Source of the DNA: Thermoplasmata archaeon | Lineage (GTDB): Archaea; Thermoplasmatota; Thermoplasmata; Thermoplasmatales; GCA-001856825 | Length of the DNA: 64,000 nucleotides | Assembly (NCBI GenBank): GCA_021817415.1 | Contig: JAKAUZ010000013.1 | Location: 4,376 to 68,375 of the forward strand | Reading direction: 5' to 3' | Shown: positions 35,351-52,510 of the stretch, in pieces | How positions within the stretch are numbered: position 1 is the first letter of the stretch | Layout: every line of letters begins with the position of its first letter | Notes under the pieces: generated by a model | What the model saw: only the letters and a program-made list of their open reading frames with translations | Database searches by the model: none | What the model was told of the DNA's origin: nothing | Made by a program: the position numbers and the translations under genes

Positions 35351-36829
35351 CTACATCTGTAAGGTAATTGAACTAGGAATCGACGGATAGGGGGAGAGAC
35401 TTTTTTGGGTGGAGAGCCACATTACCGGAAGCATGATTATCCACAGAAAAACCGCTAATTCTGTTTGCTGTCCTAGGGACCAGAATGGCCATATCTTAGA
35501 CTGAAGTGAAAATGTATAGTAATATATGAAAATCGGGACAATTCCAAGTAAAACAGCGTAAACTTCGATGATCCCTAATCCCACTCTTTTACCAGACATA
35601 AAAAATGAAGCCCCTATTAAGAATCCAGACAATGTCATCGTGTATGACATTATTGAAAATACAACTGCGTTCTCAATCGCTAACCGAGTTATAGGTGGGT
35701 CGAACCAAATGATGGCAAGAAAAGAAGAAATAAAGAGCAAAAATATGCCAAAATACGGTTTCATAAAGCGTCTCTTTAAGGTTGAAGAAATAAGGTAAAA
35801 TAAGATGAATCCGTCTAGAATCATAAACATCCCTGTTCCAAAGAGAAAGAAAGGTGAAGTTTCCAAATCATACAGAATGCCTAGTAAAACCAGCAACTGG
35901 GAAAATGTTATGGTGAGGGCCATTACTAAAGTCATACCAATTTTTGCTGGGCCTAAAGTCGCTAAAAACCTGGGGGTTCTTTTCCTCTCGTAATATCTTG
36001 ACACAAAAAAGTAAGTCATGATAAGCAAAAAAACGCTCAAGAAAATAAAGGGGATGAGCAGGATATTAAGTAAGAGAATTGTAACAGCAGGAAGAAGAGC
36101 AATTGAACTTTCGCATTGGCAGCTCAGAGCAGCCACAATTCCGTACCCAGCTGCCATAACACCGCTTTCTTTTCCATTCACTGCAGAATCTTCATTTCTT
36201 CTCTTTGCAATCAGACTGAATATCCTGTGGTAGTTTTCAACTAACAATGATGAAAGGCTCATAGTTAGAAAGAATTGAAGAGGACTAATTATGACGTCAG
36301 CATATGGGGTACTCACAAAAATGCCATATATCTCAGTAATTGGCAATGAAAAGCCTATAGTTGAAATCCTGTCCGAAAGGTTTTGAATGATTATCGAGGA
36401 AGCAGTCTGTTGATTTACAAATACGAAAACCTTAGAAATGATAAGAACGAGGAAAATTACAGTATACAAAGAGACTCCCTTTGAAAGCTTGTCGTTATTC
36501 CCAAGCTGGGAAGCATAGATGACCATCCCCGCAAGGGCAGGAATCAGAAGAAGGAAAGAAAGTAAACTCCTGGATATGACAATTAACCCAGCAAGATAAA
36601 ATGAAATCGTAACTAGAATGTAAAATGAGAGATTTTCCCACTTAGAAAGAAGTGATGACAACACCAACAAGTTAAGGACTATTGAATATGAAATTAGCTG
36701 CAAAACTGAATCTGAAGTTACCAAAAGGTATTTCGAATAGTAGCCAGTGATGATAAAAGTATTGATAAAGAATAAAGAAATAAGCAATAAAATTGAATAA
36801 GGCGTCCCTTTCTCATTCTTTGAATGCAT
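35351..36829 (-). CDS. Uncharacterised polytopic membrane protein (492 aa) in the Rieske/cytochrome b operon
   Basis: At least 12 TM helices and an intramembrane CQCE motif. Its start overlaps the cytochrome b stop by 17 nt. Confidence 0.55.
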   Translation of the reverse strand: MHSKNEKGTPYSILLLISLFFINTFIITGYYSKYLLVTSDSVLQLISYSIVLNLLVLSSLLSKWENLSFYILVTISFYLAGLIVISRSLLSFLLLIPALAGMVIYASQLGNNDKLSKGVSLYTVIFLVLIISKVFVFVNQQTASSIIIQNLSDRISTIGFSLPITEIYGIFVSTPYADVIISPLQFFLTMSLSSLLVENYHRIFSLIAKRRNEDSAVNGKESGVMAAGYGIVAALSCQCESSIALLPAVTILLLNILLIPFIFLSVFLLIMTYFFVSRYYERKRTPRFLATLGPAKIGMTLVMALTITFSQLLVLLGILYDLETSPFFLFGTGMFMILDGFILFYLISSTLKRRFMKPYFGIFLLFISSFLAIIWFDPPITRLAIENAVVFSIMSYTMTLSGFLIGASFFMSGKRVGLGIIEVYAVLLGIVPIFIYYYTFSLQSKIWPFWSLGQQTELAVFLWIIMLPVMWLSTQKSLSPYPSIPSSITLQM

Positions 36830-38414
36830 GTGATCTGTACAACTTTACAAAGGCACCGGCCAGGGTGAACAGGAGTGCCATCCCGACCCCATAAAGTCCC
36901 TGGGAGGTAATCTGAGTTGGAGACATGACTGATATAATTGCAATTATCGCAATAGCTAGAAAAGCATATATGCTGCCAAATACAAGGTGCCCCTTGTCTG
37001 TCAGTTTCTTTGTGGGAGTTTTGAAGTTGACTCCATAAACTAATGCAAAGGTTGCAAGGCTAGTCAGACCCAATATCACAAGTAGAATTATCATGGCGGT
37101 GTAATTATAGAATGTAGGGTAAACGATTACAGAGTATACTGATATGCCGGTCAAGATAGAAATGAATCCAAGAATCGGAAGGATTGCGTAAACTTTCCAT
37201 GCATTTTCTCCCAAACTGGATTTACCGAGTTCGATCCTATTCGCAAGATAATAAATCAAAGGTATGACGACCGCCAATGGTATTATGAAAAACAACAGCC
37301 CAGTTATGTTGCTCACAGGTATCCCCGGATCAAGAGCCCCCCACGCAGACAGGCCAAACAGATATATGAGACCTACAACTCCAGTCGATACCACAATATT
37401 TCTTTTGGTAATTTTCAAGGTATCCTTTTTTTCGAAGTAGGGTACTGCAAATAGGTATGCAAGCGGAAGTCCAGTAAAGAGTACAACAGCCCAGAATGGA
37501 CCCAAACTAGTCGAGACCTGGAAATCAAGTTCTTTGTACACGAACAGTAAAAACCACGGTGGATACGGTGGCACAGATGATGCAAGGGGACTTGATGCAG
37601 CCACCTGGGGGAGTGGAGAGAATAGCGCCGGAACGTTTGGAAGTATAGTGAGAAGAGAGGGAATTATGAAAATTAGAGCAATAGTGAAGAAGGCAATCTG
37701 GACCATGTACAAAAGATTGTAGGGATACCACGCCTTATAGGATGGTTCTTCTTTGTCTATTGCCGGAACTTTGAATCCAGTTTCCTTAGCGGAGGGCATT
37801 ATTGTATTGTACTCAGCGAGGAAGAAATGAACAGCGAAAAGTATGAGAATTGATCCTGCAAGTATTATGTGCCAGCCTTCAAGTCTGCTGAAAAGGGAGA
37901 TATCACTCCCATTTCCAAGGAATATCGTTGAAAGATATGAACCTATAACAGGGAAACCGTTTGCAATCCCCCTTCCCACATCAGTTGCATCTGCAGAAAG
38001 CACATCCCCTGTCATGGAATATCCAAAATAGGAGATAGCCACTGTCAGTATCATGAGTACGATTCCTGTAAGCCATTGCACCTGTCTTGGTTTTTTGTAG
38101 GATCCAACGAACAAGTTGCGGAGTAGATGGATGTAAACAAGAGCTATCATGATGTAAGCGCCATACAGGTGAGTTGTCATGATTACTGTTCCGTAAGGAA
38201 TATGGAGCGTATTCTCAGTACTTATGTACGCATTAGAAGGCTGATAATAGAAAAACAATATGACCCCAGTCATTACCTCGTAAAAGAAAGCAATCATTAT
38301 CATTGCCCCTGTCCAGTACCAGATGCCTCCCTTCTGTCTCATGTAGTCTGGTACTTTTCTAGGAAGAGGCTGAGGCTCATTCATCAATTTTTCAATTAGA
38401 TTCTCTTTAGTCAT
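36813..38414 (-). CDS. Cytochrome b (quinol oxidising, SoxC/SoxN-like)
   Basis: Two H-x13-H heme-ligand pairs (HLYGAYIMIALVYIH and HIILAGSILILFAVH) and an extended C-terminal TM region. The start is ATG at 38414 or GTG at 38423. Confidence 0.85.
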   Translation of the reverse strand: MTKENLIEKLMNEPQPLPRKVPDYMRQKGGIWYWTGAMIMIAFFYEVMTGVILFFYYQPSNAYISTENTLHIPYGTVIMTTHLYGAYIMIALVYIHLLRNLFVGSYKKPRQVQWLTGIVLMILTVAISYFGYSMTGDVLSADATDVGRGIANGFPVIGSYLSTIFLGNGSDISLFSRLEGWHIILAGSILILFAVHFFLAEYNTIMPSAKETGFKVPAIDKEEPSYKAWYPYNLLYMVQIAFFTIALIFIIPSLLTILPNVPALFSPLPQVAASSPLASSVPPYPPWFLLFVYKELDFQVSTSLGPFWAVVLFTGLPLAYLFAVPYFEKKDTLKITKRNIVVSTGVVGLIYLFGLSAWGALDPGIPVSNITGLLFFIIPLAVVIPLIYYLANRIELGKSSLGENAWKVYAILPILGFISILTGISVYSVIVYPTFYNYTAMIILLVILGLTSLATFALVYGVNFKTPTKKLTDKGHLVFGSIYAFLAIAIIAIISVMSPTQITSQGLYGVGMALLFTLAGAFVKLYRSHAFKE

Positions 38415-38423
38415 TTTAAACAC

Positions 38424-39134
38424 CTACTGGGTCGTAGTGACCGTGGTTTTCCCCGATGGGGTAATGTTGCTTCCACCTGTCAGATCTGAAGAGTGCCCAT
38501 ATATGGTGGGTCCAACTAGCAATGTTGCACTGTAGGAATCAGATTTCTCGTCATAACTGAGGACAACACTGGGCAAGGGTGCTTGTGTAGGCCCTGTTAC
38601 GACGCCGAATCCGGAATAGGGATCATAAGTGCTCCCGTGGCAGTCACAGTGTATCTTTCCAGGGAAAGAAGAAGATGATGGAGGGTTAAAATGTATTTCC
38701 GGAGGAATACAACCCAAGTGCTGACATATTGCGGAAGCTGCAACGACTGATTTATATGGTCCGACCCCCCCAGGAACTTTGTATTTCGTGTTATTTGCAG
38801 GGATTCTCACTTCGGTTGGATTGATTTCGACGTCCTTGTTATTTGAATCACCAAGTCTGAGGAGAAAATTAGGTTCGTTTTCTAGTGGGAAATTGAACGT
38901 CACCGTTTGCGGGTTGTTGACAATAAGATCATCTGTGCTTACCGGGTTCCCGTTTGGCAAGTAAAGGGTAAGGATAGGAAATGAAGAAGCTCCACCTTCT
39001 ATTGGAGGGATGATGTTCTGGACAACGCTCCTGAGCGTCCCAGCAACTCCTGCGCCTATTATCATCACTCCTAAGAGCTTCATGAAATTTCGTCTATCTT
39101 TATCCTTAATCTCATCTCTTGTTGGCACAGACAT
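38424..39134 (-). CDS. Rieske [2Fe-2S] protein with a Tat signal
   Basis: CQHLGC and CDCHGS boxes. The twin-arginine leader is DRRNFMKLLGVMIIGAG. Confidence 0.9.
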   Translation of the reverse strand: MSVPTRDEIKDKDRRNFMKLLGVMIIGAGVAGTLRSVVQNIIPPIEGGASSFPILTLYLPNGNPVSTDDLIVNNPQTVTFNFPLENEPNFLLRLGDSNNKDVEINPTEVRIPANNTKYKVPGGVGPYKSVVAASAICQHLGCIPPEIHFNPPSSSSFPGKIHCDCHGSTYDPYSGFGVVTGPTQAPLPSVVLSYDEKSDSYSATLLVGPTIYGHSSDLTGGSNITPSGKTTVTTTQ

Positions 39135-39138
39135 CCCC

Positions 39139-39885
39139 TTAAGCCGTTACCTGGACTACTCCTTCCATCCACCCTGCAGTTGCCATCGCTCCTCCCCAAC
39201 CGTCAAGCTCGTGACCGCAGGGCACATAGCACTGCCAGGGATAGCTACCGGTATTGTTAAGATAAAACTCTGTAAATGTCACTGCGCCTCCCGATGGATT
39301 CGTTCCAGCAAATGTTGGAACATTTAGCACAATTTGTCCGTTTGAAAGCAAAGTGAAAGTGTGAGTGACTTCCCACCCTCCAAATGTAGAATTCCACGGA
39401 AGCGACGAAACTGCCCATCCGCTTCCATGTACTATTGAAATATCGTTAGAAGCATTGCCACTTAATGTAGAATTTATATACTGAGCTGTTCCATTATAAA
39501 CATATTCGACTCCACCCACTGTTCCTATTACTTTGGCATATGAAGAATTATTTGAAGTTCCGTTAGGGCCGATTATGCTTGTCACTCCACTATCATAATC
39601 GATTATAGTTAGCTTTATCAATCTGTGTGAAGGAAGTGTAATCACAGCAGAAGATTCAAGTTGACCATTTGGTCCAACTACGAAGAAGGCAGGCTGAGTA
39701 TGATGTATTGTAGCATTGTCAAACCAGTTATTAGGCGAAATCAACAGGGTCAAAGATACAGGTCCTTGAGGTAACTGCTGCTGCGGGGTTGAAGACAGAG
39801 TTTTGTCATAAGCTACGCCCACTCCTATTCCACCAACAAGAATAATGGCTGCTATGATGGCATAAAACGTCTTTTCGCTTATCAT
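39139..39885 (-). CDS. Membrane-anchored, sequon-rich cupredoxin-like (sulfocyanin-like) protein with an atypical ligand loop
   Basis: N-terminal anchor and a beta-rich domain. Candidate ligands are VTHTF ... YPWQCYVPCGHELDGWGGAMATAGWMEGVVQV. It contains 8 N-x-S/T sequons. Confidence 0.5.
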   Translation of the reverse strand: MISEKTFYAIIAAIILVGGIGVGVAYDKTLSSTPQQQLPQGPVSLTLLISPNNWFDNATIHHTQPAFFVVGPNGQLESSAVITLPSHRLIKLTIIDYDSGVTSIIGPNGTSNNSSYAKVIGTVGGVEYVYNGTAQYINSTLSGNASNDISIVHGSGWAVSSLPWNSTFGGWEVTHTFTLLSNGQIVLNVPTFAGTNPSGGAVTFTEFYLNNTGSYPWQCYVPCGHELDGWGGAMATAGWMEGVVQVTA

Positions 39886-40337
39886 CCGACATTTAAGTAA
39901 CTGATGTTAATAAATGTAACGTGGGATTAAAGAGTTTTAATAAAATTTAGCGACATTAAATAGATTTAGTTTTTTATATATGTTATGGTGAACAATTTTT
40001 ATTTACCTACAAATCCCGGCATCACATCTCTGCGAAATAAGGCTAATGGGAAAGCCAAAAGAGATACATTTAAGGGCGAATTTTCAGTATCTTAAGAATC
40101 ATATTAAAGTTACTTATTTCATTCGGAAATTATATTTCATCGATTTTCAATTGCGCTTTCAGTGTTTGTTTTGGATACAACTCCTGTCATCATAACAGAA
40201 ATTCAGCTTTAATTAAGTAACACAAATAAGATTTAATTAACCTAAATATTTTAGTATACATTAGATAATTGGCATATTTTCTACGAAAAGAATTTATAGC
40301 GTTTTAAGAATAGACTGTTAATTCGTCAGGAGTTTTT
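39886..40337. promoter_or_regulatory. 452-bp AT-rich divergent control region between the two redox operons
   Basis: No credible ORF. Repeated acatttaag (39890, 40066) and tttaattaa (40208, 40232) motifs. A TATA-like aatttatagc sits at 40293 and an aggag SD lies 5 nt (spacer ttttt) before the korD ATG. Confidence 0.5.
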
Positions 40338-40634
40338 ATGATTAAGGAAAATAAACCTAATCTATCCCAGGACGAGATTTGGAGAGAACCAGTCAACCTT
40401 GCACTTTTCAGAAAACCCCAGGGCAAGGTTCATGTTATTGCCGAAAGGTGCAAGGAATGCAACTACTGTACAAATTACTGCCCAAATGAGGTGCTTGAAA
40501 GATCCACTAACACAAACAGCCACGGATACCACTACGTGCAGGTCAAGGCAGGAAAAGAAAGTTCCTGCGTAAATTGCGGAATGTGTCAAACCATATGCCC
40601 AGACTTTGCAATATTTGTCACGGAGGTGCAGTGA
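40338..40634 (+). CDS. korD: 2-oxoacid:ferredoxin oxidoreductase delta subunit (2x[4Fe-4S])
   Basis: CKECNYCTNYCP and CVNCGMCQTICP motifs. Confidence 0.85.
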   Translation: MIKENKPNLSQDEIWREPVNLALFRKPQGKVHVIAERCKECNYCTNYCPNEVLERSTNTNSHGYHYVQVKAGKESSCVNCGMCQTICPDFAIFVTEVQ

Positions 40635-40642
40635 ACTTGAAT

Positions 40643-41773
40643 ATGTTACCTCCTGGGAAATATTTTACAGACGGAAATTTTGCTGCCACAGAAGGAGCAT
40701 TATATGGTGGATGTAGATTCTTCGCAGGGTATCCTATCACACCCTCAAGCGAAATATTAGAAAGAATGAGCAGACGTTTACCAGAGGTCGGAGGGCACTT
40801 CATCGAGATGGAGGACGAAATAGCCAGCATAGCCGCAATTATTGGTGCTTCCAACGGCGGGCTAAAAAGCATGACTGCCACTTCAGGACCTGGTTTTTCC
40901 TTGATGCAAGAGAATATAGGTCTGGGAATGATAACCGAGACTCCGACGGTCATCATTGATGAAATGAGGGCTGGACCTTCCACTGGAATCCCAACCAGAG
41001 TGGGCCAGGGAGACGTAATGCAAACTCGGTGGGGTTCTCACGGAGATTTGGCACCTATTACTTACTCTCCTAACAGTGTACAGGAATCATTTGATTTAAC
41101 GATATTAGCTTTCAATTCGGCTGAGATCTATAGGCAGCCGGTAATAATCGCTTCTGACCAGGTAATTGGCCACCTAAGCGAGATTCTTACGGTTGGTAAT
41201 CCTGAAGAGTACGAAGTGATCCAGAGACTTACCAGGAAGAAAGCGAACGGGAACCACAATACATTCAGTTATTCTGATGACTTTATTCCAATGTTTGTTC
41301 CCGGAACAGGATTCAGAGGTAACGTCGATAGTCTCACGCACGATGAAATGGGTTATCCTTCTAATGATGCATCAGTGGAAAGGGAGATGCTTGAACATCT
41401 ACTGGGAAAAATCAAGAGGAACGAAACGAAAATAATACGTTTTGAGGAGTATATGACCGACGATGCGAAAGTAATAGTTGTTGCGTATGGGATCACCTCA
41501 AGGTCTGCCAAAAAGGCAGTTAAGAATGCGAGGGATGAAGGTTTGAAGGTCGGCCTATTCAGGCCCATTACGCTCTGGCCCTTCCCCGAAGGAAGAATAG
41601 TTGAACTCGCAGAGAAAACAAGGAAATTCATAGTGCCAGAAATAAACTATGGCCAGTATTCCCATCCAGTCAGGGAATTCAGCAGAAGGGAGACAGAAGA
41701 GATTCACTTTCCACCTGGTGCAATACCTGATTTTAAGATCATTTTAAGGGAAATTGAGAGGTCATTTACATGA
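40643..41773 (+). CDS. korA: 2-oxoacid:ferredoxin oxidoreductase alpha subunit
   Basis: GNFAATEGALYGGCRFFAGYPITPSSEI motif. ATG at 40643 follows the korD stop. The tracker start at 40574 lies inside korD in another frame. Confidence 0.9.
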   Translation: MLPPGKYFTDGNFAATEGALYGGCRFFAGYPITPSSEILERMSRRLPEVGGHFIEMEDEIASIAAIIGASNGGLKSMTATSGPGFSLMQENIGLGMITETPTVIIDEMRAGPSTGIPTRVGQGDVMQTRWGSHGDLAPITYSPNSVQESFDLTILAFNSAEIYRQPVIIASDQVIGHLSEILTVGNPEEYEVIQRLTRKKANGNHNTFSYSDDFIPMFVPGTGFRGNVDSLTHDEMGYPSNDASVEREMLEHLLGKIKRNETKIIRFEEYMTDDAKVIVVAYGITSRSAKKAVKNARDEGLKVGLFRPITLWPFPEGRIVELAEKTRKFIVPEINYGQYSHPVREFSRRETEEIHFPPGAIPDFKIILREIERSFT

Positions 41774-42612
41774 GCATTGAGGAAGTGCATCCAAAGAGTC
41801 AATTTCTGAGGGACGAGAGACTCCCGCATATCTGGTGCCCAGGTTGTGGATTGGGGATCGTACTTCAAAGTTACATCAATGCAGCTGAAAAATCTGGAAT
41901 CAGGCTGGAAAATCACGTATTGATTTCAGGAATAGGGTGTACGGCCAGGCTTCCAGGGTATGCAAATCTTGATACTTATCACACAACCCACGGAAGGGGG
42001 ATTCCTTTCGCAACTGGAATGAAAATCGCTAATCCGGATCTAAAAGTGACTGTGATCAGCGGAGATGGCGATCTGTTCAACATTGGTGGGAATCATTTCA
42101 TACATGCCGCAAGAAGGAACATGGACCTTTTGGTGGTTTGTGTCAATAATTTCAACTATGGCATGACAGGAGGACAGCACGGATCAACTACCCCGCCCTC
42201 CTCCCTGTCTTCCTCTACACCCTACGGGAATATAGAGCAATCATTCAATCTGCCATATCTTGCAGCAGCAATAGGTGCATCGTATGTTGCCAGATGGACA
42301 GTCATGCATCCAAGACAGTTTACAAAGTCACTGTCTAAAGCGATGGATATAAGGGGATTTGCATTTGTGGAAGTGTTATCTCCATGTCCTCCAAACTTTG
42401 GCAAGTTCAATGGCTTTTCAGACGGGTTTGCAGAAATGGAGTTCTACAGAAAGAATTCTGTAGTCGATAATGAGGCAAAACTAGAGGATGTCTCAATTGA
42501 CCCACATCACGGCAAACAAATAATTCTGGGAGAATTTGTCAACAAAAGAAGACCTTCTTTCATAGAGCTGGAAAGAGAGGTCAATCGAAGGGCGATGGTG
42601 GTGGAAAAATGA
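41770..42612 (+). CDS. korB: 2-oxoacid:ferredoxin oxidoreductase beta subunit (TPP binding)
   Basis: WCPGCG, GIGC and SGDGDLFNIGGNH TPP/cluster motifs. ATGA overlap with korA. Confidence 0.9.
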   Translation: MSIEEVHPKSQFLRDERLPHIWCPGCGLGIVLQSYINAAEKSGIRLENHVLISGIGCTARLPGYANLDTYHTTHGRGIPFATGMKIANPDLKVTVISGDGDLFNIGGNHFIHAARRNMDLLVVCVNNFNYGMTGGQHGSTTPPSSLSSSTPYGNIEQSFNLPYLAAAIGASYVARWTVMHPRQFTKSLSKAMDIRGFAFVEVLSPCPPNFGKFNGFSDGFAEMEFYRKNSVVDNEAKLEDVSIDPHHGKQIILGEFVNKRRPSFIELEREVNRRAMVVEK

Positions 42613-43139
42613 CTGTAAACATAAGGATTTATGGAATGGGAGGGCAAGGGATTATCACACTGGCCAAGCTGATAGGAGAAGCTGCAGTTGAAGACGGGAA
42701 ATCGGCGATCATGACCGAGGAGTATAGCCCTTATGTTACTGGTGGCTGGTCAACAGCCGATCTTATTATCAGCGATCATGAGATAGACTATCCGCTCATT
42801 GAGAATCTCGATTATCTCGTCACTCTCTCTCAAGAAGGGCTGGAGAAAAATCTCGAATCAATAAAAATGAGCTCCAAACTAATTACTGAAAAGTCTCTTG
42901 TTAAGGTGCCCGACTTATATAAGAAACAGGCCTTTGAAATACCGGGAATAGAGCTGGCCAAATCCCTGAATAATCCAAAGGGGACTAACATGGTTATAAT
43001 GGGGGCGATAGGTGGGGTTACGAAATCCTTTTCGAAGGAATCAGGCAGGGCTGCCATCTCGAAAAGATTTCCCAGTTTCTCGGAAATTAACATAAATTGC
43101 TTTGACAGAGGTTTTGAGGAGGTGACTCGACCTGGCTGA
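42609..43139 (+). CDS. korC: 2-oxoacid:ferredoxin oxidoreductase gamma subunit
   Basis: IYGMGGQGIITLAKLIGEAA motif. ATGA overlap with korB. Confidence 0.88.
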   Translation: MTVNIRIYGMGGQGIITLAKLIGEAAVEDGKSAIMTEEYSPYVTGGWSTADLIISDHEIDYPLIENLDYLVTLSQEGLEKNLESIKMSSKLITEKSLVKVPDLYKKQAFEIPGIELAKSLNNPKGTNMVIMGAIGGVTKSFSKESGRAAISKRFPSFSEININCFDRGFEEVTRPG

Positions 43140-46100
43140 CAAAGTCCTTGTCATCGGAGGAGGAATTGCTGGAATCCAGGCTTCTTTGGACCTCGCGGAA
43201 TCTGGAGTAGAAGTGGTACTTGTGGAAAAAAGTCCCTCAATAGGGGGCAAGATGGCAGCGCTGGACAAGAATTTTCCAACGATGGATTGCTCAATCTGCA
43301 TCGAAGCACCAAAAATGAGCGACGTCATTCACAATCCGAATATCAAAGTTCATTCACTATCGGAGGTCACAAAAATTGAGGGGAAGGAGGGGGATTTCGA
43401 GGTCACTATTTACCAAAAGCCAAGGTTTGTCGATGACTCCTGCACAAGATGCGATTTATGCGTGCAAGCTTGTCCCCAAATACTGAAGAATGAATTCGAC
43501 GCTGGAATTGGAGCCAGAAAGGCAATATATACCCCATTTCCACAGGCGGAACCAGGTCCATACGTCATCGATATTGATAGCTGTTTGAACGAACCACCCA
43601 ACTATCTACCTTGCGGAAGATGCACAGACGCATGCGGTCCTGGAGCGATAGATTTCAACATGAAGCCAAAACTGATAAAAGAAAAGGTGGTTTCAGTCAT
43701 TGTTGCAACCGGGTTCGATCTATTCAACGCATCGCTGCTGAACGAGTTCGGTTATAGCAAGGATCCTGACATTCTGACATCCTACGAATTGGAAAGGATG
43801 ATCAATGCGGCGGGCCCTACGGATGGAGAAATAATCAAACCTTCAAACGGACAGCACCCTGAAAAAGTATTGTTTGTTCTGTGCGCAGGTTCCAGAGATG
43901 CGAGATTTGTTCCATATTGCTCAAGAACTTGCTGTATGTATTCCATCAAAGAAGCTTCCCAGCTGGTAGACCACGGAATAAAGAATGTTTCAGTCCTGTA
44001 CATGGATATCCGAGCTTATGGGAAAGGTTTCGACGAATTCTACTCAAGGTCACAAAGGGACGTCAGATATATAAGGTCAAGGCCAGCATCCGTTAGAAGG
44101 AAGGGGGATTCCATAGAGGTAAGATACGCGAAGGAGGACGGCTCCGTCACGAAGGAGGACTATGACCTCGTTGTTCTTGCTACTGCCTCGATCCCATCAA
44201 AGGGAACGGATAAGTTAGCTGGAATTCTCGGACTGGAGTTATCTGAAGACGGATTCTTCAAGAACAAACAAGATGACCCAGTTTCTACATCAAGAGAAGG
44301 GATATTTGTGGCTGGATGCGCTTCGGGGCCAAAGGATATCCCAGATAGCGTTACAGAAGCTTCTGCAGCTTCTGCCAGAGCGCAGAAATATGTCAAGAAC
44401 AGAGAATGGATAGCGGAACCAAAAGCACCTCCTCTTGATATGTCAGGAGACCCAAAAGTTGGAGTTTTCCTCTGCGACTGTGGTTCGAACATAGCAGGAG
44501 TGGTTGATGTAAAAAGGGTTGCAGAGGAAATGAAAAAAGTGCCGAACGTAGTCTACGTCGAGGAGAATAAATTCACCTGTTCTGGCAGCTCTCAGGATGC
44601 AATAGCTGCAAAAATCAAGGAAAAAGGGTTGAACAGGGTAGTGGTAGGGGCATGCTCTCCCAAGACTCACGGAGTAACCTTCCAGAGGGTGTGTTCAAGG
44701 GCAGGCCTGAATCCCTATCTTTTTGAAATGGCAAATGTGCGAAACATGGACTCATGGGTCCACAAGAAGGAAAAGGATAAAGCGACGGAGAAGGCAACAG
44801 ATTTGGTGAAGATGGCAGTCGCAAAAGTGAAATTACTGTCTCCGATGGATGATATCGAGTTTCCAGTTATTAAAACTGGCGTCATCATTGGGGGAGGACC
44901 TGCGGGAATGGCTTCAGCTGCGGCCTTATCCAACATTGGACTCGAGGTTCACCTGATAGAGGAGAAAGGAGAACTTGGAGGGCTTCTCAACTCGCTAGAC
45001 AGGGTAGCTCCTTCTAATATTGAGGCTGCTGAGATTTTTAAAAAATTGAAGAAGGGAGTGGAAGAATCTAATGTACGTATTCATACATCAACAAAAGTGA
45101 AAGAGATCACCGGTTTTGTAGGAAATTTCTCCCTTAAGCTTTCAAATAATGAGAATATTGAAGCGGGAGCTATAGTTATAGCCACCGGTGCTGACCCTTA
45201 CTCCCCTACCGAGTTCAATTATGGAAAAGATGAAAAGATCCTCACTTCGAATGACATAGAAAAGAAATACTCACGACTGGAGGGAGAACGCTTTGCCCTA
45301 ATATCGTGCGTTGGATCAAGAACTAGGGAGAAAGGATGTTCAAGATTCTGCTGCTCAACGATGCTCCAGCAGGCAATAGATTTGAGAGAGAAGGGAAAAA
45401 TCGTAAGGGTTTTCTACAAGGATGTCAGAGCATATGAGAGAAACGCAGAAGAATTGTACAAGAAGGCAGGGGAAAAAGGGGTCCAATTCTACAGGTATGA
45501 TTCAGAAAAACTCCCACAAGAGGCAATTTTCTTCGACGGAAATTCAGTGACATTCGTGGATGAACTTACGTCCGCAAAATTGAAAGCGCCAGTCGATAGA
45601 GTCGTATTGAACGTCGGTCTTATGCCGAAGGATCAGGAAATATTCACCCAATTGAAGCTTTCGAGGGACAACGAAGGCTTCCTGCTTGAATCTCACCCAA
45701 AACTCGGTCCCGTGGAAGCCGCAGTTCAGGGTATCTTCTTGGCAGGAACAGTTCAGGGACCGAAGGATGTGAAAGAGTCAATTTCTCAGGGTTATGCCAC
45801 AGCTTCCAAGGCAGCAAAGCTGCTGATGGGAGGGAAGATATCAAAGGAACCCATAATTCCGCAGATCAATACAAACAAGTGCGTCAAGTGCCTGAAGTGC
45901 GCAGAGGTTTGTCCGTACGGGGCGATAAAAGGTGAAAGGGGAAAATGGATAAACCTAGTCCCAGCAGCGTGCATGGGATGCGGGAACTGTGTCGCTGAAT
46001 GTAATATTGAAGGGGCAATAACCATGCCCAATTTCACCGACGAACAAATAATGACGCAGATCGATCAGGCCACGGCCGAAAAAGCAGAAGAGAAGTTACT

Positions 46101-46524
46101 GGTGTTCGCCTGTAACTGGTGTTCATATGCGGGCGCTGATCAGGCCGGAATATCAAAGATACAGTACCCTCCCAGTGCGAGAGTTATAAGGACCATGTGC
46201 TCCAGCAGAATATCCCAAAAACTAGTCATGTATGCATTTAGCAAGAATCCGGGGGCAGTCCTGGTCACTGGATGTCATATAAATGATTGCCACTACATAG
46301 ACGCTAACGTTCATACTGAGAAAAGAATGGAGAGATGGAAGAGGTTCATATCAGCGAAGAACGTGAATCCGGATAGATTACAATTGTGGTGGGTCAGCGC
46401 CGCAGAAGGTAACAGGTTTGCATCAAAGATTAAGGAAATGGATGCGCTGATCAAATCTCTCTCTAAGGAAGAGATTCTGAGCACTTCAGAAAAGATTGGA
46501 GGGGTGGTAAAACGATCGAAATAG
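43132..46524 (+). CDS. Tandem HdrA-type flavoprotein with a C-terminal MvhD domain (QmoA::QmoB-like fusion, about 1130 aa)
   Basis: Two GxGxxG motifs, each followed by CxGSR..CSxxCC. Four ferredoxin-type cluster motifs. MvhD-like FACNWCSYAGAD...GCHINDCHY. The first FAD motif (KVLVIGGGIAGIQ) lies upstream of the tracker TTG at 43186. The proposed start is CTG at 43132, 6 nt after ggaggtga. Confidence 0.8.
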   Translation: MADKVLVIGGGIAGIQASLDLAESGVEVVLVEKSPSIGGKMAALDKNFPTMDCSICIEAPKMSDVIHNPNIKVHSLSEVTKIEGKEGDFEVTIYQKPRFVDDSCTRCDLCVQACPQILKNEFDAGIGARKAIYTPFPQAEPGPYVIDIDSCLNEPPNYLPCGRCTDACGPGAIDFNMKPKLIKEKVVSVIVATGFDLFNASLLNEFGYSKDPDILTSYELERMINAAGPTDGEIIKPSNGQHPEKVLFVLCAGSRDARFVPYCSRTCCMYSIKEASQLVDHGIKNVSVLYMDIRAYGKGFDEFYSRSQRDVRYIRSRPASVRRKGDSIEVRYAKEDGSVTKEDYDLVVLATASIPSKGTDKLAGILGLELSEDGFFKNKQDDPVSTSREGIFVAGCASGPKDIPDSVTEASAASARAQKYVKNREWIAEPKAPPLDMSGDPKVGVFLCDCGSNIAGVVDVKRVAEEMKKVPNVVYVEENKFTCSGSSQDAIAAKIKEKGLNRVVVGACSPKTHGVTFQRVCSRAGLNPYLFEMANVRNMDSWVHKKEKDKATEKATDLVKMAVAKVKLLSPMDDIEFPVIKTGVIIGGGPAGMASAAALSNIGLEVHLIEEKGELGGLLNSLDRVAPSNIEAAEIFKKLKKGVEESNVRIHTSTKVKEITGFVGNFSLKLSNNENIEAGAIVIATGADPYSPTEFNYGKDEKILTSNDIEKKYSRLEGERFALISCVGSRTREKGCSRFCCSTMLQQAIDLREKGKIVRVFYKDVRAYERNAEELYKKAGEKGVQFYRYDSEKLPQEAIFFDGNSVTFVDELTSAKLKAPVDRVVLNVGLMPKDQEIFTQLKLSRDNEGFLLESHPKLGPVEAAVQGIFLAGTVQGPKDVKESISQGYATASKAAKLLMGGKISKEPIIPQINTNKCVKCLKCAEVCPYGAIKGERGKWINLVPAACMGCGNCVAECNIEGAITMPNFTDEQIMTQIDQATAEKAEEKLLVFACNWCSYAGADQAGISKIQYPPSARVIRTMCSSRISQKLVMYAFSKNPGAVLVTGCHINDCHYIDANVHTEKRMERWKRFISAKNVNPDRLQLWWVSAAEGNRFASKIKEMDALIKSLSKEEILSTSEKIGGVVKRSK

Positions 46525-47642
46525 ACGACTCAAGATGGGAAAGGATCACCAATCTGGTCGGGTTCAGCGGAAGCGAATGTTTTCAATGCGGAGTGTGTAC
46601 GGCGACCTGTCCTCTGGGATTCATGGGAGAAGAGACCATAGATACCCGTAACATTCTGAGAAGGGCGCAGATTGGCGCGGAACTCCCGGATAGCGTTTGG
46701 AAATGCTCTACCTGCAGACTATGTGAGGAATCTTGTCCCAGGGATGTTGATATTGTAAATGTAGTACTGGGGCTGAGAGAGCTGGAATTTCAAGATAGGA
46801 AGGCACCTGAAAGAATAGAGAAACTTGTGTGGGATATATATGAGGATGGGAATCCATGGGGAGGGAAGAAGGGAGACAGAAATAAGTGGGCAGAAGGTTT
46901 GGAAATAAAGGATGCTAGTAAAGGGGTGGAAACGCTACTATTCGTGGGATGCGACGGTGCATACAATAAGGAACTCCACAAGTCGCTTCGCTCTCTTGCA
47001 GAAATCCTGAAGAAATCAGGAACAGATTTTGGTTTCCTAGGAAATGAAGAATCCTGCTGCGGCGAACCTGTCAGGGACGCAGGGGAAACGGGGTACCTAG
47101 ACGAGCTGGTAGAGAAAAACATATCACAGTTTGAGAGTACTAAGGCCAGGACTCTTGTGACATTCTCGCCACACTGCAGCAACATGTTCTCGACGATCTA
47201 CAAGAAAAAAGGGTTGAAGATGAAGGTAATGCATTATTCAGAATACTTAAATGAACTTGTCAGGGATGGGAAAATTACCATCAATTCTGAAATCAAGAAA
47301 AAAATAACAATTCACGACCCATGCTACCTCAGTAGATATGGAGGAGACTCGAAAGAGTTGAGGGAACTGGTCGTTAAGGTACCAGGAACTGAAATAGTGG
47401 AAATGGAAAATTCCGGTAAAAACAGCTTATGCTGCGGAGGTGGCGGGGACAGGATTTTCATGGATTTCGAAGGAAAGAGGCTTTCAGATTTCAGGATGGA
47501 ACAAGCAAAGAACACCGGTGCCGAGGTAGTCATAACCGCGTGCCCGATCTGCAACATGAATCTCTCAGACAGCAGGAAGGTAAATGGAATAAAAATGGAA
47601 ATTATGGAACTTTCCGAATTCCTGAAGGGGGGAACGGAATGA
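46515..47642 (+). CDS. HdrD-like Fe-S protein (HdrC-type 2x[4Fe-4S] plus two HdrB-type CCG domains). Start uncertain.
   Basis: CFQCGVCTATCP and CSTCRLCEESCP, then CCGEP and LCCGGGG CCG motifs. The first canonical start (GTG at 46593) lies inside the first cluster motif. In-frame candidates are ATC at 46515 and ATA at 46521. Confidence 0.75.
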   Translation: MEIDDSRWERITNLVGFSGSECFQCGVCTATCPLGFMGEETIDTRNILRRAQIGAELPDSVWKCSTCRLCEESCPRDVDIVNVVLGLRELEFQDRKAPERIEKLVWDIYEDGNPWGGKKGDRNKWAEGLEIKDASKGVETLLFVGCDGAYNKELHKSLRSLAEILKKSGTDFGFLGNEESCCGEPVRDAGETGYLDELVEKNISQFESTKARTLVTFSPHCSNMFSTIYKKKGLKMKVMHYSEYLNELVRDGKITINSEIKKKITIHDPCYLSRYGGDSKELRELVVKVPGTEIVEMENSGKNSLCCGGGGDRIFMDFEGKRLSDFRMEQAKNTGAEVVITACPICNMNLSDSRKVNGIKMEIMELSEFLKGGTE

Positions 47643-48613
47643 CAAGGAAGGAGATATGGGTCTATATTGAGAGGAACAACTCAGGTGTTGAAGACGTGTC
47701 ATTGGAAATATTAGGCAAAGGAACTGAATTGTCAAATATTTCTGGGTACATACTGGTCGGACTGATTGCCGGTACTCCAGAAAAGAAGTTGATAGACCTC
47801 GTGATAGAACACGGGGCAGACAGAGTTGCACTACTTAAGAATGAAATGTTGAATGAATATTCTACTGACTATTTTGTAAATGCAATTTCTGAATATATAA
47901 AGAACGATCCTCCGGAAGTTATGCTGATAGGAGCAACGCAAAATGGAAGGGACCTAGCAGGGAGACTGGCAGGTAGATTGAAGACTGGCCTAACTGCAAA
48001 TGCCATTACTCTATCAATTGACCGTGAAGGGATGCTCCTGGCAGGAGTTCCTGCATATGGTGGAAAAATTCTCGCTGAAATTGGCTGTGAATACGGGAGA
48101 CCGCAAATGTCAACCGTACGTCCAGGAACATTTAAGATGAAAGAAGTGAAGAATAAAAAAGGGGAGGTTGATGAATTCATTCCAAATTTATCTGCTATCA
48201 GACAGAGAGTGAGAATTGTAGAAAGAAATGTGAGCGAAGTGAACGATCTAACAAGATCTGAAAGGACAATCATCGGAGGTAACGGAACCAGAGGTGACCT
48301 GACACTGCTAAAGGAATTGGCTCAATTGATGAATGCTGAGATAGGGGTCACAAGACCTCTAGCAGACAGAGGGGTAGCCCCGAGGGAGTTGCAGGTGGGT
48401 TCGACGGGCTACTCTCTGAAAAGCAAAATCGCGTTGGTGCTTGGAGTCAGCGGGTCGGAACATTTCACTTCTGGGATAAGAGACTGTGAGGAGGTCATTG
48501 CAATTGACGTGGACGAGAAATCAGAAATTTTCAACCACTGTGACTATTGTATGGTAGGGGATATTTTCGAGGTGCTTCCGCTGACAATAAAGAAAATGGA
48601 GGAAACTAGATGA
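47639..48613 (+). CDS. etfA: Electron transfer flavoprotein alpha (large) subunit
   Basis: C-terminal FAD-binding pattern LGVSGSEHFTSGI...VIAIDVDEKSEIF..CDYCMVGD. ATGA overlap with the upstream gene. The tracker extension to 47429 is out of context. Confidence 0.88.
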   Translation: MTRKEIWVYIERNNSGVEDVSLEILGKGTELSNISGYILVGLIAGTPEKKLIDLVIEHGADRVALLKNEMLNEYSTDYFVNAISEYIKNDPPEVMLIGATQNGRDLAGRLAGRLKTGLTANAITLSIDREGMLLAGVPAYGGKILAEIGCEYGRPQMSTVRPGTFKMKEVKNKKGEVDEFIPNLSAIRQRVRIVERNVSEVNDLTRSERTIIGGNGTRGDLTLLKELAQLMNAEIGVTRPLADRGVAPRELQVGSTGYSLKSKIALVLGVSGSEHFTSGIRDCEEVIAIDVDEKSEIFNHCDYCMVGDIFEVLPLTIKKMEETR

Positions 48614-49395
48614 AAAACATCATTGTTTGCGTCAAGGTGGTACCTAAATCCGACAATATAATTTTTGACCCGGTAAACAAGAGACTTGACCGTACTAAGG
48701 CAGAAAACCAGATCAACGCAGCAGACAAGAGTGCAATTGAAACTGCTCTAAGAATAAGAGAGAGAGTCGGTGGAAAAATAACATTACTTTCAATGGGACC
48801 CCCTTTCTTTGAACCGTTCCTGAAATTAGGAATAGCTATGGGGGTTGACGAGGCAATCCTTCTTTCGGATAGAAATTTTGGTGGTGCAGATACTTTCCCC
48901 ACAGCGTTAGTACTCGCAACAGCTATCAAGAAAATTGGGAACGTAGATCTAGTGCTGACAGGTGAAGAATCATCAGATGCCGGACTTGGGCAAGTACCGT
49001 CACAGATAGCAGAATTTCTGGATTTCCCCCAGGTCCTTTTTGCTTCCACCACTGACATATCTGGAGGTACGTTGATCGCCAGAAGGTCAATAAAAGGAGG
49101 TTATGAGATCTTAGAATCAGATTTGCCGGCTGTTGTAAGTGTAGTTCTGGGAGCATATCAACCCAGATTTCCAGACTTTAAGAAGAAGAAATGGGCTGAC
49201 AATAATTACAAGGTCAAAGTTTGGAACGGGGAAGATCTGCAACTGAGCGAATCAGTCACAGGCATCAAAGGATCTTTCACCACGGTGAAGAGACTGGTAG
49301 AGATTCCCCAGTCATCAAGGAAGAAAATTATCATAGATGGAACGCCAGAAGAGAAATCATCAAAACTGGTTGAGATTTTAAGAAAGGCAAAATAG
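48610..49395 (+). CDS. etfB: Electron transfer flavoprotein beta (small) subunit
   Basis: MKNIIVCVKVVP...INAADKSAIETALRI...LLSMGP pattern. ATGA overlap with etfA. Confidence 0.88.
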   Translation: MKNIIVCVKVVPKSDNIIFDPVNKRLDRTKAENQINAADKSAIETALRIRERVGGKITLLSMGPPFFEPFLKLGIAMGVDEAILLSDRNFGGADTFPTALVLATAIKKIGNVDLVLTGEESSDAGLGQVPSQIAEFLDFPQVLFASTTDISGGTLIARRSIKGGYEILESDLPAVVSVVLGAYQPRFPDFKKKKWADNNYKVKVWNGEDLQLSESVTGIKGSFTTVKRLVEIPQSSRKKIIIDGTPEEKSSKLVEILRKAK

Positions 49396-49414
49396 AAGAA
49401 AATATGAATTAATT

Positions 49415-49843
49415 TCACTTTCTCTTTGCTACTGAAATGGCTCCAGCGGGACATGCGGCCACGCAGGCATTACACAAAATACAATCTTTCTCTCCCACAG
49501 GGTCTGCCTTATCGGTTCTGTAAGTATCCCAGAGTAGAGTTCCGCGTTCAATCGGTCTGTCATTTCCCTTTCCCCGTTTACCCGGATTCAGAGCCCATTC
49601 GAATCCGTTCATCGGGCAGGCTTCCATGCAGGATCCATCGGCAATGCAGCTATCCCAATCAACGGCAACATTCACACCATGAATCCCTAATCGTGTAGGA
49701 TACGGTTTGTTTTCTTCATCAAACCTCACTTTACCTTCCGCCCTTACCTCGTGCCCATTGTGCATTCCCGTTATTGGATATTGGTCCGGAAGATCGAAAA
49801 AATTTTCATCAATTGCCCTTGGTGGGTAATCAACTTTTTCCAT
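49415..49843 (-). CDS. Zinc-containing 7Fe (dicluster) ferredoxin, Sulfolobus/Thermoplasma type, copy 1
   Basis: N-terminal extension with His ligand candidates (TGMHNGHEV, IHGV) plus the CIADGSCMEACP and CILCNACVAACP motifs. Confidence 0.85.
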   Translation of the reverse strand: MEKVDYPPRAIDENFFDLPDQYPITGMHNGHEVRAEGKVRFDEENKPYPTRLGIHGVNVAVDWDSCIADGSCMEACPMNGFEWALNPGKRGKGNDRPIERGTLLWDTYRTDKADPVGEKDCILCNACVAACPAGAISVAKRK

Positions 49844-50040
49844 GAATTATACTATGTCTTTGGTCGTACTAATAAATTTCTCACATTTAATCTTACTAAG
49901 ATTTCAAAATTGGGTCGATTCCATCATTTCTCTGAAAATTTCAGTGCAAGGAAGTTTACGCCTTCAGGGGCGAGTCTATCTATAATCAACTCCCACGTCT
50001 TAAATATTCATTTTGCTGGAATAACCCCCGTTCATTTCTA

Positions 50041-50751
50041 TTACTTGTTTTCCTGACCACATCCCTGGCACCAAAGATAGAAATCCAGAAAATCTATTTC
50101 TTCCTGGAGAATCATATTCTCAAATCCTGTAAGATCGAATCTTCTTTTCCTATGATAAGGGACGACCGTTAGCTCCTTTGCGTTAGCCAGAACCAATTTC
50201 ATCATATCGTCTGCATCTACCTTAATTCCTTTTAGCACAATTCCCTCTCCATTTGAACTGATTTTAAGAGGAAGGGTAATTGAGGATAATAGTAGATGCG
50301 GCTCCTTGTCATCAATCACAATTTTTGAATTTTCAGAATGGAAAACTTCGTCGCACAGGAGCGCAAGGAAGAGGCCATTATTAATTGCGGTTCCATTAAT
50401 CGCTGCAAAAATGGGCTTCTCCAGAGAGATGAAGAAAAGGATCAAATTTTTAAGGCTTTCATAATAGTCTCTCAAGTCAGCATATGTCCTGGATTGAGGA
50501 AGTGAAAGACCTTTTGAAAATATAAAGTTCGAACCAGTCAGCACCAAGGATTTGACGCTGTCGTCAACAGCCGCTATTGACAGAACGCTTATCAGTTCGT
50601 GAACTAAACTCTTATCAATTGTACCTGGGGAGAGTATTGTTACTATGCCCACAGGGCCCTCTCTCCAAAAAGAAATTTTGGAGTACCCATCTACTTTTGG
50701 TGCCTTCGCAGTATTACCAACTATATCGCCGCTCACAAAAATTGAATTCAT
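50041..50751 (-). CDS. Enoyl-CoA hydratase/isomerase (crotonase) superfamily protein
   Basis: LVLTGSNFIFSKG...EKPIFAAINGTAINNGLFLALLCD oxyanion-hole pattern. Confidence 0.55.
   Translation of the reverse strand: MNSIFVSGDIVGNTAKAPKVDGYSKISFWREGPVGIVTILSPGTIDKSLVHELISVLSIAAVDDSVKSLVLTGSNFIFSKGLSLPQSRTYADLRDYYESLKNLILFFISLEKPIFAAINGTAINNGLFLALLCDEVFHSENSKIVIDDKEPHLLLSSITLPLKISSNGEGIVLKGIKVDADDMMKLVLANAKELTVVPYHRKRRFDLTGFENMILQEEIDFLDFYLWCQGCGQENK

Positions 50752-51037: not shown

Positions 51038-52510
<1,473 letters not shown>

Follow-up and report, generated by a model that had tools for sequence, protein, structure and literature searches.

A conserved gene block places a four-subunit 2-oxoacid:ferredoxin oxidoreductase beside a fused HdrA dimer, an HdrD-like protein and an electron transfer flavoprotein in Archaea and Bacteria

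The DNA analyzed here is a stretch of 64,000 nt (hereafter the window) from a Thermoplasmata archaeon (GenBank assembly GCA_021817415.1, contig JAKAUZ010000013.1), which carries at positions 40338–49395 an operon of eight genes, all on the + strand and lying head to tail in the order korD-korA-korB-korC-hdrA2-hdrD-like-etf large-etf small (Pfam and NCBIfam assignments). They encode the four subunits of a 2-oxoacid:ferredoxin oxidoreductase (OFOR), a fused dimer of the heterodisulfide reductase subunit HdrA, an HdrD-like iron-sulfur protein and the two subunits of an electron transfer flavoprotein (ETF; Etf for the subunits encoded here). An earlier note on this DNA had proposed these eight genes and identities, and the coordinates, Pfam and NCBIfam agree with it; the complex that it envisaged was soluble, and none of the eight products has a predicted membrane segment (no 19-residue stretch with a hydropathy > 1.6). 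The junctions are tight, with ATGA overlaps read directly at 41770, 42609, 47639 and 48610, a gap of 8 nt between korD and korA, an hdrA2 gene that overlaps the korC stop by 8 nt and an hdrD-like gene that overlaps the hdrA2 stop. The only sizeable non-coding gap around the block is the A+T-rich intergenic region upstream of korD (39886–40337, 452 nt, no strand, read directly), which sits between a divergent open reading frame (ORF) of 248 aa, ending at 39885, and korD, and which is presumed to be the promoter region. Scans of 39800–50100 for sigma-70 promoters and intrinsic terminators gave the same counts as shuffled sequences, the method being unsuited to archaea.

The first four genes have all the parts of a four-subunit OFOR, namely the alpha domains, a beta subunit for thiamine pyrophosphate (TPP), and separate gamma (POR) and delta (2×[4Fe-4S]) subunits. 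The delta subunit, KorD (40338–40634, +, 98 aa), carries two [4Fe-4S] motifs (Pfam Fer4_7, E 1.3e−9, and Fer4), and its top NCBIfam matches are OorD and OGOR_delta, both below their cut-offs. KorA (alpha; 40643–41773, +, 376 aa) matches POR_N (E 1.5e−59) and PFOR_II (E 6.5e−20) and passes the cut-off of the NCBIfam model NF006412 for 2-oxoacid:acceptor oxidoreductase alpha subunits (483 bits, cut-off 411). KorB (beta, TPP and [4Fe-4S]; 41770–42612, +, 280 aa), whose gene overlaps korA by ATGA, matches TPP_enzyme_C (E 9e−33), and its translation has the TPP motif GDGDLF...NNFNYGMTGGQ as well as the CPGC, GIGC and SPCP motifs. KorC (gamma; 42609–43139, +, 176 aa; ATGA overlap with korB) matches Pfam POR (PF01558, E 1.3e−29). 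All substrate-specific NCBIfam models for OFORs stayed below their cut-offs. The nearest solved chains to KorA are 1YD7 (Pyrococcus), 8YS5 and 6N2N (the 2-oxoglutarate:ferredoxin oxidoreductase, OGOR, of Magnetococcus), with pyruvate:ferredoxin oxidoreductase reached only at E 1e−11, and the nearest to KorB is 8YS5_C (E 1e−59). By these similarities, the enzyme appears to belong to the Kor/2-oxoglutarate-type (broad-specificity) clade.

The fifth gene, hdrA2 (43132–46524, +), encodes 1130 aa when read from CTG 43132 and was identified with Pfam, NCBIfam and solved HdrA chains; its score against the NCBIfam HdrA2 model (1165 bits) exceeds the cut-off of 1100. It aligns to the solved HdrA chains in three permuted stretches (aa 3–377, 440–578 and 844–978; E 1e−178), so that the inserted ferredoxin, N-terminal [4Fe-4S] and C-terminal ferredoxin domains of HdrA are all present in a different order. 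The first stretch is a thioredoxin-reductase-like (TrxR) domain for flavin adenine dinucleotide (FAD) with an inserted ferredoxin domain, and holds a bifurcating-type FAD site (TrxR1; 43132–44430, +; GxGxxG, C53xxC56, E221 and K273, aligned to 5ODC_A). It is followed by the homolog of the N-terminal [4Fe-4S] domain of HdrA, which is internal here (44449–44865, +; aa 440–578 against HdrA residues 3–141, E 5e−41), and by a second Rossmann/FAD-type domain (TrxR2; 44869–45831, +), which internal BLASTP of the halves showed to be 29% identical to the first over aa 580–840 and to lack the inserted ferredoxin domain. The third stretch comprises the end of the FAD domain and a C-terminal 2×[4Fe-4S] ferredoxin domain (45844–46086, +; Pfam Fer4 at aa 904–982; alignment to HdrA residues 511–647). 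The earlier note had recognized a double HdrA; the protein additionally holds a fused C-terminal MvhD/FlpD [2Fe-2S] adaptor domain (46087–46467, +; aa 986–1112), which matches PF02662 (E 7.6e−44) and the MvhD chains in the PDB (E 7e−32).

Residues K409 and E356 of the Methanothermococcus thermolithotrophicus HdrA are held to mark the bifurcating HdrA flavin (PMC12054007). Their equivalents in TrxR1, K273 and E221, are invariant in 22 homologs and in 16 orthologs from clusters of the kind described here; all the Cys ligands of HdrA2 are invariant in the homologs as well. In TrxR2 the Glu is kept, while the position of the Lys is occupied by Gln746 in the window and is variable elsewhere, next to the near-invariant Gln747. 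Thus, the view that the double HdrA supplies bifurcation modules stands for the first flavin site and not for the second, where the Lys is lost.

The HdrD-like protein (46512–47642, +; 376 aa from ACG 46512; Pfam CCG, E 2e−34) combines two cubane motifs with two CCG domains, of which the N-terminal one is degenerate and the C-terminal one intact. Residues C268, C304, C305, C341, C344 and H218 are invariant in the orthologs. The N-terminal motif reads C144...C179C180...S216xxC219 and departs from that of heterodisulfide reductase catalytic subunits: Ser216 replaces the first Cys of the CxxC in 16/16 orthologs, and the whole N-terminal (distal) ligand set is lost in 4/16. The nearest solved relative is the mycobacterial EtfD (9OJN, E 1e−49), to which it aligns over the soluble core (9OJN residues 400–719); with a maximal 19-residue hydropathy of 0.97 the protein has no transmembrane helices, and the block encodes neither an HdrE-like membrane heme-b partner nor any other membrane protein. 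The earlier suggestion that this subunit carries a disulfide- or quinone-directed site does not agree with the degenerate distal CCG domain, the missing membrane part and the relationship to EtfD. Judging from its residues and relatives, we regard the HdrD-like protein as an electron adaptor that docks ETF, and not as a heterodisulfide or quinone reductase.

The last two genes, each joined to its predecessor by an ATGA overlap, encode the Etf large (alpha/FixB-type; 47639–48613, +, 324 aa; ETF and ETF_alpha domains) and small subunits (beta/FixA-type; 48610–49395, +, 261 aa; ETF, E 1e−35). For both subunits the top five solved matches are CarDE, LctBC, the Clostridioides difficile and A. fermentans Etfs, and Thermotoga maritima EtfAB, at E 1e−34 to 1e−52 compared with about 1e−15 to 1e−22 for the other solved Etf chains. 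For instance, the large subunit finds CarE, 5OL2_A and 7KOE_B at E 1e−50 to 1e−52 and the others at about 1e−19 to 1e−22, and the small subunit finds CarD and LctB of the PDB at E 1e−41 and keeps the SDRxFxGxDT stretch common to both. We take these five to be all bifurcating and the rest non-bifurcating. In the T. maritima EtfABCX, the Arg of the RPxFGG motif lies 3.1 Å from N5 of the bifurcating FAD, and its replacement abolishes ferredoxin reduction and also abolished dye-linked NADH oxidation (PMC10734219). The large subunit of the window reads VPAYGG at this motif, and Val takes the position of the Arg in 16/16 orthologs. In the small subunit the Arg of RxGV is conserved (RTKA in the window), and GxxSPTxV reads GSFTTV in the window and GSPTxV in bacterial members, the P not being conserved in archaeal ones. 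The alignment check of EtfAB against bifurcating and non-bifurcating groups that had been recommended for this locus therefore gave a divided answer, in which overall similarity favors a bifurcating Etf and the Val in all 16 orthologs makes it doubtful. Because of this family-wide signature, we would place the operon's Etf in a distinct subgroup and not class it as a bifurcating Etf; the most economical reading is that its alpha-FAD serves as the one-electron partner of the HdrD-like protein.

At the point where the protein must begin, hdrA2 and the hdrD-like gene both lack an ATG, GTG or TTG. In hdrA2, the first canonical codon (TTG 43186) falls after the GxGxxG FAD motif, which a start there would remove. 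CTG 43132 aligns codon for codon with the starts of the orthologs, namely TTG in a sister strain (98.7% nucleotide identity to the window over the operon), ATG in L005, TTG in L094, L008 and L088, and GTG in L090 (L numbers are our labels for loci). It is preceded by the Shine-Dalgarno (SD)-like GAGGAGGTGA, with a perfect SD-like GGAGGTGA 7 nt upstream. Over the 17 codons that precede TTG 43186, the window and its relatives are separated by 11 synonymous changes and 1 non-synonymous change. The CTG allele is the same in four independent assemblies, each yielding an identical called protein of 1112 aa that occurs on at least 24 contigs; with four assemblies identical at the site, a sequencing error behind the CTG was ruled out. 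By codon alignment, then, CTG 43132 is the homologous start of hdrA2, as the earlier note had it, and because the start is a CTG the gene callers shorten HdrA2 to 1112 or 1116 aa without the FAD GxGxxG.

The hdrD-like gene has its first canonical codon, GTG 46593, only within the first CxxCxxCxxxCP motif, and the frame upstream of it is conserved as protein. An ACG at 46512, 4 nt after the SD-like GGAGGGGTGGT, is kept in the window, the sister strain, L005 and L094 (also L097/L098), a subclade that spans about 78–80% HdrA2 identity, and aligns with the ATG of L096, L008 and P0153. This alignment makes ACG 46512 most likely the start and rules out ATA 46521, the one junction in the earlier note that did not hold. 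Because of the ACG, public calls give a 339-aa protein that misses three of the four Cys of the first cubane cluster. The codon is a candidate for near-cognate initiation or reinitiation in archaea; a full-text search for literature on CUG or ACG start codons in archaea gave nothing useful. A −1 programmed frameshift that would fuse HdrA2 and HdrD at the conserved GGTAAAACG (A_AAA) was considered as well and rejected, because L094 has GGTAAGACG, without the slippery A_AAA, and nevertheless shows the same ACG and the same relation of frames.

The distribution of the block was followed with a profile scan across GTDB species, one genome each, in which 80 loci were listed, and with look-ups of exact proteins, which added more; the distribution is a lower bound. 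The eight-gene order recurs in at least 15 other genomes of two domains of life, with unrelated flanks. All loci with an HdrA2 ≥ 50% identical to that of the window and with enough flanking sequence read korD-A-B-C, hdrA2, hdrD, etf-large, etf-small (full order in L005, L094, L095, L096, L008, L015, L088, L089, L090, L009, L011, L012 and L032; parts of the block in L010, L013, L014, L017 and L041). The kor genes stand upstream of hdrA2 in 16/16 loci with upstream sequence, korD heading the block in 14 loci, and hdrD and both etf genes stand downstream of it in 15/15 loci with downstream sequence. Among other Thermoplasmatota, HdrA2 is 78–80%, 66% and 62–63% identical to that of the window in three lineages and 52% in one more; the remaining hosts belong to the Nitrososphaerales, Calditenuaceae HR02, Kariarchaeaceae (Asgard), Dehalococcoidia, Anaerolineae, other Chloroflexota and two Elusimicrobiota. 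The top 120 homologs of HdrA2 measure about 1090–1190 aa and the top 120 of HdrD about 330–406 aa, except for one fragment of 232 aa. A metagenome scan with the HdrD-like protein gave three distant loci only and no close relatives.

The flanking genes differ in every lineage, and an order shared by 15 or more independent genomes from two domains, set between flanks that are not conserved, puts the arrangement far beyond chance. In addition, identity to the window co-varies across the genes (r 0.77 for korD and 0.91–0.98 for the other six), which indicates that the block is inherited and evolves as one unit. The proposal that these genes act together had been made to depend on synteny in relatives, and the order is strongly conserved across Archaea and Bacteria.

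A variant of the cluster occurs in Planctomycetota, Gemmatimonadota and unclassified bacteria (L046 6800–19000; also L016, L033–L035, L038, L039, L042 and L049). It consists of korDABC, a double HdrA without MvhD, a separate mvhD and an HdrD-like gene, and continues with HdrA-MvhD, HdrC and HdrB in place of Etf; both its HdrD-like protein and the extra HdrB have complete CCG motifs. Since the variant exchanges Etf for these proteins, the OFOR-HdrA2-HdrD core is constant and the last module exchangeable. The extra HdrA of L046 has an in-frame TGA at the second Cys of a DCSIC motif (15395–15425, DCSI-TGA-ILGPKAMDVG), where ORF callers split the gene, and which very probably encodes selenocysteine. 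Selenocysteine occurs at such a site in the HdrA of Methanococcus. Just downstream of the block in L008, a metagenome-assembled genome of Thermoplasmatota, there is a second and more distant etf pair in small-then-large order (16710–18404), which suggests that the Etf of the operon is a dedicated paralog.

The closest known analogue of this block appears to be the class II benzoyl-CoA reductase (BCRII), which the earlier note had missed and which already shows a chain of HdrA dimer, HdrD-like subunit and ETF. What can be read from the window is one bifurcation-type HdrA flavin, an OFOR with its own 2×[4Fe-4S] delta subunit, an Etf in cis, and three Fe-S exits from the HdrA flavin (the inserted ferredoxin domain, the cluster toward the HdrD-like protein, and the C-terminal ferredoxin domain with MvhD). 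By analogy, we lean on balance towards a soluble multi-flavin, multi-Fe-S complex resembling BCRII, in which the tungsten module would be replaced by the four-subunit OFOR and in which HdrA would bifurcate or confurcate electrons. Its low-potential arm would run from the bifurcating FAD over the inserted ferredoxin domain and KorD to the TPP site of the OFOR (about −500 mV), its high-potential arm from the same FAD over the HdrD-like adaptor to the Etf alpha-FAD (around 0 mV), and a third path over the C-terminal ferredoxin domain and MvhD to a mid-potential partner, for which ferredoxin, NAD(P)H and F420 are candidates.

In the bifurcating direction, pairs of mid-potential electrons would be split, and the reduction of Etf, and then of the quinone pool, would pay for the reductive carboxylation of acyl-CoA; in the confurcating direction, electrons from OFOR and Etf would merge into the mid-potential carrier. 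Bifurcation with respiration as the sink is slightly favored in this analogy, since respiration is found in most hosts and the scheme follows the logic of BCRII and FixABCX. The neighboring genes give weak hints, with an enoyl-CoA hydratase in the window and an acyl-CoA dehydrogenase, a thiolase and an acyl-CoA synthetase in Calditenuaceae. Only tentatively do we suggest that the block represents a new bifurcating class, i.e., a ferredoxin-independent OFOR supercomplex in which reduction of a dedicated Etf, and after it the respiratory chain, would pay for electrons at ≤ −500 mV at a TPP/Fe-S site.

Several points weigh against a BCRII-like complex. Its formation is argued only from gene order and analogy, and fusions between subunits (Kor-HdrA2, HdrA2-HdrD or HdrD-Etf) were found in none of the top 120 HdrA2 or HdrD homologs. 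The operon encodes no equivalent of BamGHI, MvhAG or FdhAB and hence no mid-potential (third) partner. In bacterial members the junctions measure 5–150 nt, and two loci have inserts of 1.5–2 kb. The CTG and ACG starts of hdrA2 and hdrD mean that expression of the Hdr part may be low in the window strain. TrxR2 lacks the inserted ferredoxin domain that the BCRII study gives each half of BamE, and by overall similarity the Etf falls among the NADH-reactive group-2 Etfs, a feature for which the analogy to BCRII offers no explanation.

Some of these points would suit a linear, non-bifurcating wire, in other words a 2-oxoacid:ETF oxidoreductase independent of ferredoxin, in which both electrons from OFOR would pass via the Fe-S chain of HdrA2 and HdrD to Etf and on to quinones, with the energy dissipated. 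No module for a third substrate is encoded, Etf is without the bifurcation Arg, a cytochrome b gene lies next door, most hosts are respirers, and reduced ferredoxin short-circuits to ETF in BCRII in vitro (bioRxiv 10.64898/2026.04.10.717634). A plain wire would not need K273, E221, C53xxC56 and the whole MvhD domain, all of them invariant across phyla, and we regard this alternative as unlikely.

That kor always lies directly upstream of hdrA2, with stop/start overlap in archaeal members and co-varying identities, speaks against another possibility, in which the operon would merely co-regulate separate enzymes: an OFOR that reduces free ferredoxin (here the Zn-ferredoxin encoded next to the operon) and an HdrA2-HdrD-Etf unit that reoxidizes it, e.g., by Fd/ETF- or Fd/NAD-linked bifurcation. 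KorD is a delta subunit of the usual kind, such as free-standing four-subunit OFORs possess, the inserted ferredoxin domain of HdrA normally serves free ferredoxin (bioRxiv 10.64898/2026.04.10.717634), and separate enzymes would agree with the lack of fusions among the top 120 homologs and with a Zn-ferredoxin gene that abuts the operon in the window strain. This ferredoxin neighbor is not conserved, and the arrangement as separate enzymes seems to us rather unlikely.

We consider improbable the version given in the earlier note, an Hdr/Etf module with a bifurcating Etf and a disulfide- or quinone-directed HdrD. The best matches of both Etf subunits to the NADH/ferredoxin-coupled CarDE, LctBC and T. 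maritima EtfAB, the SDRxFxGxDT stretch kept in the small subunit, and the complete CCG motifs of the HdrD-like protein and extra HdrB in the Etf-less variant cluster would be in line with it; in the operon itself, the Arg of RPxFGG that is essential in T. maritima EtfABCX (PMC10734219) is Val in 16/16 orthologs, the distal cluster of the HdrD-like protein is degenerate or absent, and there is no membrane or heme partner.

Very improbable, finally, is a decay of the Hdr part in the window strain, in which a TTG-to-CTG change, suggested by the TTG of the sister strain and by called HdrA2 proteins of 1112 and 1116 aa without the FAD motif, would have removed the hdrA2 start and left only KorDABC, and perhaps Etf, to be made: the 9 kb are free of frameshifts and stops, four independent assemblies share the CTG allele, with its protein on at least 24 contigs, GGAGGTGA stands 7 nt upstream of a start that overlaps the korC stop, and 11 synonymous changes stand against 1 non-synonymous change over 17 codons, though these mainly reflect the history before the mutation.

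Beyond the BCRII-like complex that we favor, the surroundings of the operon contain the following. A gene for a Zn-type ferredoxin (49415–49843, −; NF041165, E 2e−62, below the cut-off) converges on the 3′ end of the block 19 nt downstream, as the earlier note had seen; together with the enoyl-CoA hydratase-family gene behind it (50041–50751, −), it follows the operon in the window and the sister strain, and neither gene was called at this position in 9/9 other annotated block loci, so that both are neighbors and not conserved members of the block. On the other side, five co-directional genes run divergently from the operon (33397–39885, −). They encode a cytochrome b (533 aa), a protein of 633 aa with a C-terminal 2×4Fe-4S domain, a protein of 492 aa with no family match, one of 236 aa with a weak Rieske match and one of 248 aa with no match, and may form an unusual respiratory complex. 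The host had been described as a respiring Thermoplasmata-type archaeon, in keeping with its placement in the Thermoplasmatota and with the cytochrome b gene close by. At 51038–52510 there is a complete archaeal 16S rRNA gene on its own; no 23S or 5S rRNA gene was found in the 11.5 kb downstream of it or elsewhere in the window, and the rRNA genes are therefore unlinked.

HdrA-type bifurcation has been characterized with hydrogenase, formate dehydrogenase, F420, methylene-THF reductase and, recently, benzoyl-CoA reductase. If the proposed complex exists, it would bring electron bifurcation into central carbon metabolism, at the 2-oxoacid node, and would be the first HdrA module hard-wired to a central-carbon enzyme. 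Respiring archaea and bacteria, the Asgard Kariarchaeaceae included, could then carboxylate acyl-CoA to 2-oxoacids or, in the reverse direction, bank the surplus energy of 2-oxoacid oxidation. The block is thus a candidate answer both to how users of OFORs without 2-oxoacid dehydrogenase complexes dispose of or exploit electrons at −500 mV, and to how respirers obtain such electrons for reductive carboxylation. The hosts in question, i.e., Thermoplasmatota, non-ammonia-oxidizing Nitrososphaerota, Calditenuaceae, Asgard Kariarchaeaceae, Chloroflexota and Elusimicrobiota, have little or no biochemistry behind them, and a compact block of 9 kb with eight soluble proteins is suited to heterologous expression and cryo-EM.

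The block was also compared with known HdrA- and Etf-containing enzymes. Full-text searches of the literature on HdrA, Etf, OFOR and Kor, with subscription journals partly covered, found no OFOR-Hdr-Etf cluster and no characterized enzyme of such composition, and the earlier note likewise knew of none. The chain of HdrA dimer, HdrD-like subunit and ETF is already known from BCRII and the double HdrA is a known class; it is the combination of OFOR, Hdr and Etf that is apparently undescribed.

With the group-2 Etf enzymes (Bcd-EtfAB, CarCDE, LctBCD and FixABCX/EtfABCX) the block shares the idea of an Etf as the link between a low-potential carrier and an acyl-CoA or respiratory sink, and differs from them in having no acyl-CoA, lactate or FixCX partner and in the order of the etf genes, large then small. 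QmoA (a bare HdrA flavin domain) and QmoB (HdrA with an MvhD-like domain) presumably add up to the domains of the window fusion; unlike in QmoABC, there is no membrane heme-b QmoC, no AprAB neighbor in any locus, and the CCG protein is soluble. Membership in the sulfur-oxidizing sHdr, Qmo or Flx-Hdr systems was set aside, since their partner genes are absent from every locus.

As in the methanogen MvhAGD-HdrABC and the HdrA2B2C2 of Methanosarcina, the window has the equivalents of K409 and E356, an inserted ferredoxin domain, an MvhD (fused in HdrA2) and an HdrC-like plus HdrB-like partner. Unlike in these enzymes, two TrxR domains stand in one permuted chain, the HdrB-like part cannot form two complete non-cubane clusters, and the block is without a hydrogenase, formate dehydrogenase or F420 module. 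The type II double-TrxR HdrA of methane-metabolizing and Asgard/TACK archaea, a recognized class with no biochemistry yet, is likewise a double HdrA and sometimes has a C-terminal MvhD; its clusters have been described with FdhB and a molybdopterin protein, with no OFOR- or Etf-linked cluster among them (PMC12054007, PMC11237513). In contrast to that class, only the first flavin site keeps the Lys in the HdrA2 of the window.

EtfD, the ETF:menaquinone oxidoreductase solved from Mycobacterium (9OJN), takes electrons from ETF (PMC13083937), and its soluble core of two [4Fe-4S] and two CCG domains aligns to the HdrD-like protein. Besides five transmembrane helices, EtfD has a side directed to quinone and a long tail that is disordered. 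The 376-aa protein of the window has no hydrophobic segment, and its first CCG motif retains the CC pair, whose counterpart in EtfD is a single Cys.

The most extensive likeness is with BCRII of Geobacter metallireducens, Bam[(BC)2DEFGHI]2, and for BamE and BamD it rests on the published description of residues and domains, not on direct sequence identity. According to its cryo-EM structure, BamE is an HdrA dimer fused into one chain, with TrxR1 at its very start, and has Lys280 at the bifurcating FAD, Gln768 at the non-bifurcating FAD and Cys59-Cys62 beside the bifurcating flavin, while BamF is an MvhD-type adaptor (bioRxiv 10.64898/2026.04.10.717634). HdrA2 correspondingly has a Lys at FAD-1 (K273), a Gln at FAD-2 (Q746/Q747) and C53xxC56, and the block includes an MvhD-type [2Fe-2S] adaptor, here fused, compared with the separate selenoprotein BamF. 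BamD is HdrBC/HdrD-like, with a proximal non-cubane cluster on five Cys and a His and a distal cluster that is altered by a Cys-to-Ser exchange and disrupted in most homologs; the high-potential branch runs from BamD to ETF, which binds BamD and is reduced by it, as shown by cryo-electron tomography and in vitro, and the low-potential branch leads over the inserted ferredoxin domain to the catalytic module (bioRxiv 10.64898/2026.04.10.717634). The HdrD-like protein of the window has the same two cubanes, five proximal Cys with His218, and distal Cys-to-Ser exchange, and the ETF is again linked to this subunit, in the window by gene adjacency.

Genes for an AOR-type BamB and a NuoEFG-like BamGHI were found neither in the block nor within 10 kb of it in any annotated locus, because of which the block is not a benzoyl-CoA reductase. 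Accordingly, the confurcating input module BamGHI has no counterpart, and Etf, group-2-like by overall similarity, is encoded within the operon. In BCRII the catalytic low-potential module is joined via a small poly-ferredoxin subunit, as it would be in the window, and that module is a TPP/Fe-S OFOR (KorDABC) in the window where BCRII has the tungsten enzyme BamBC.

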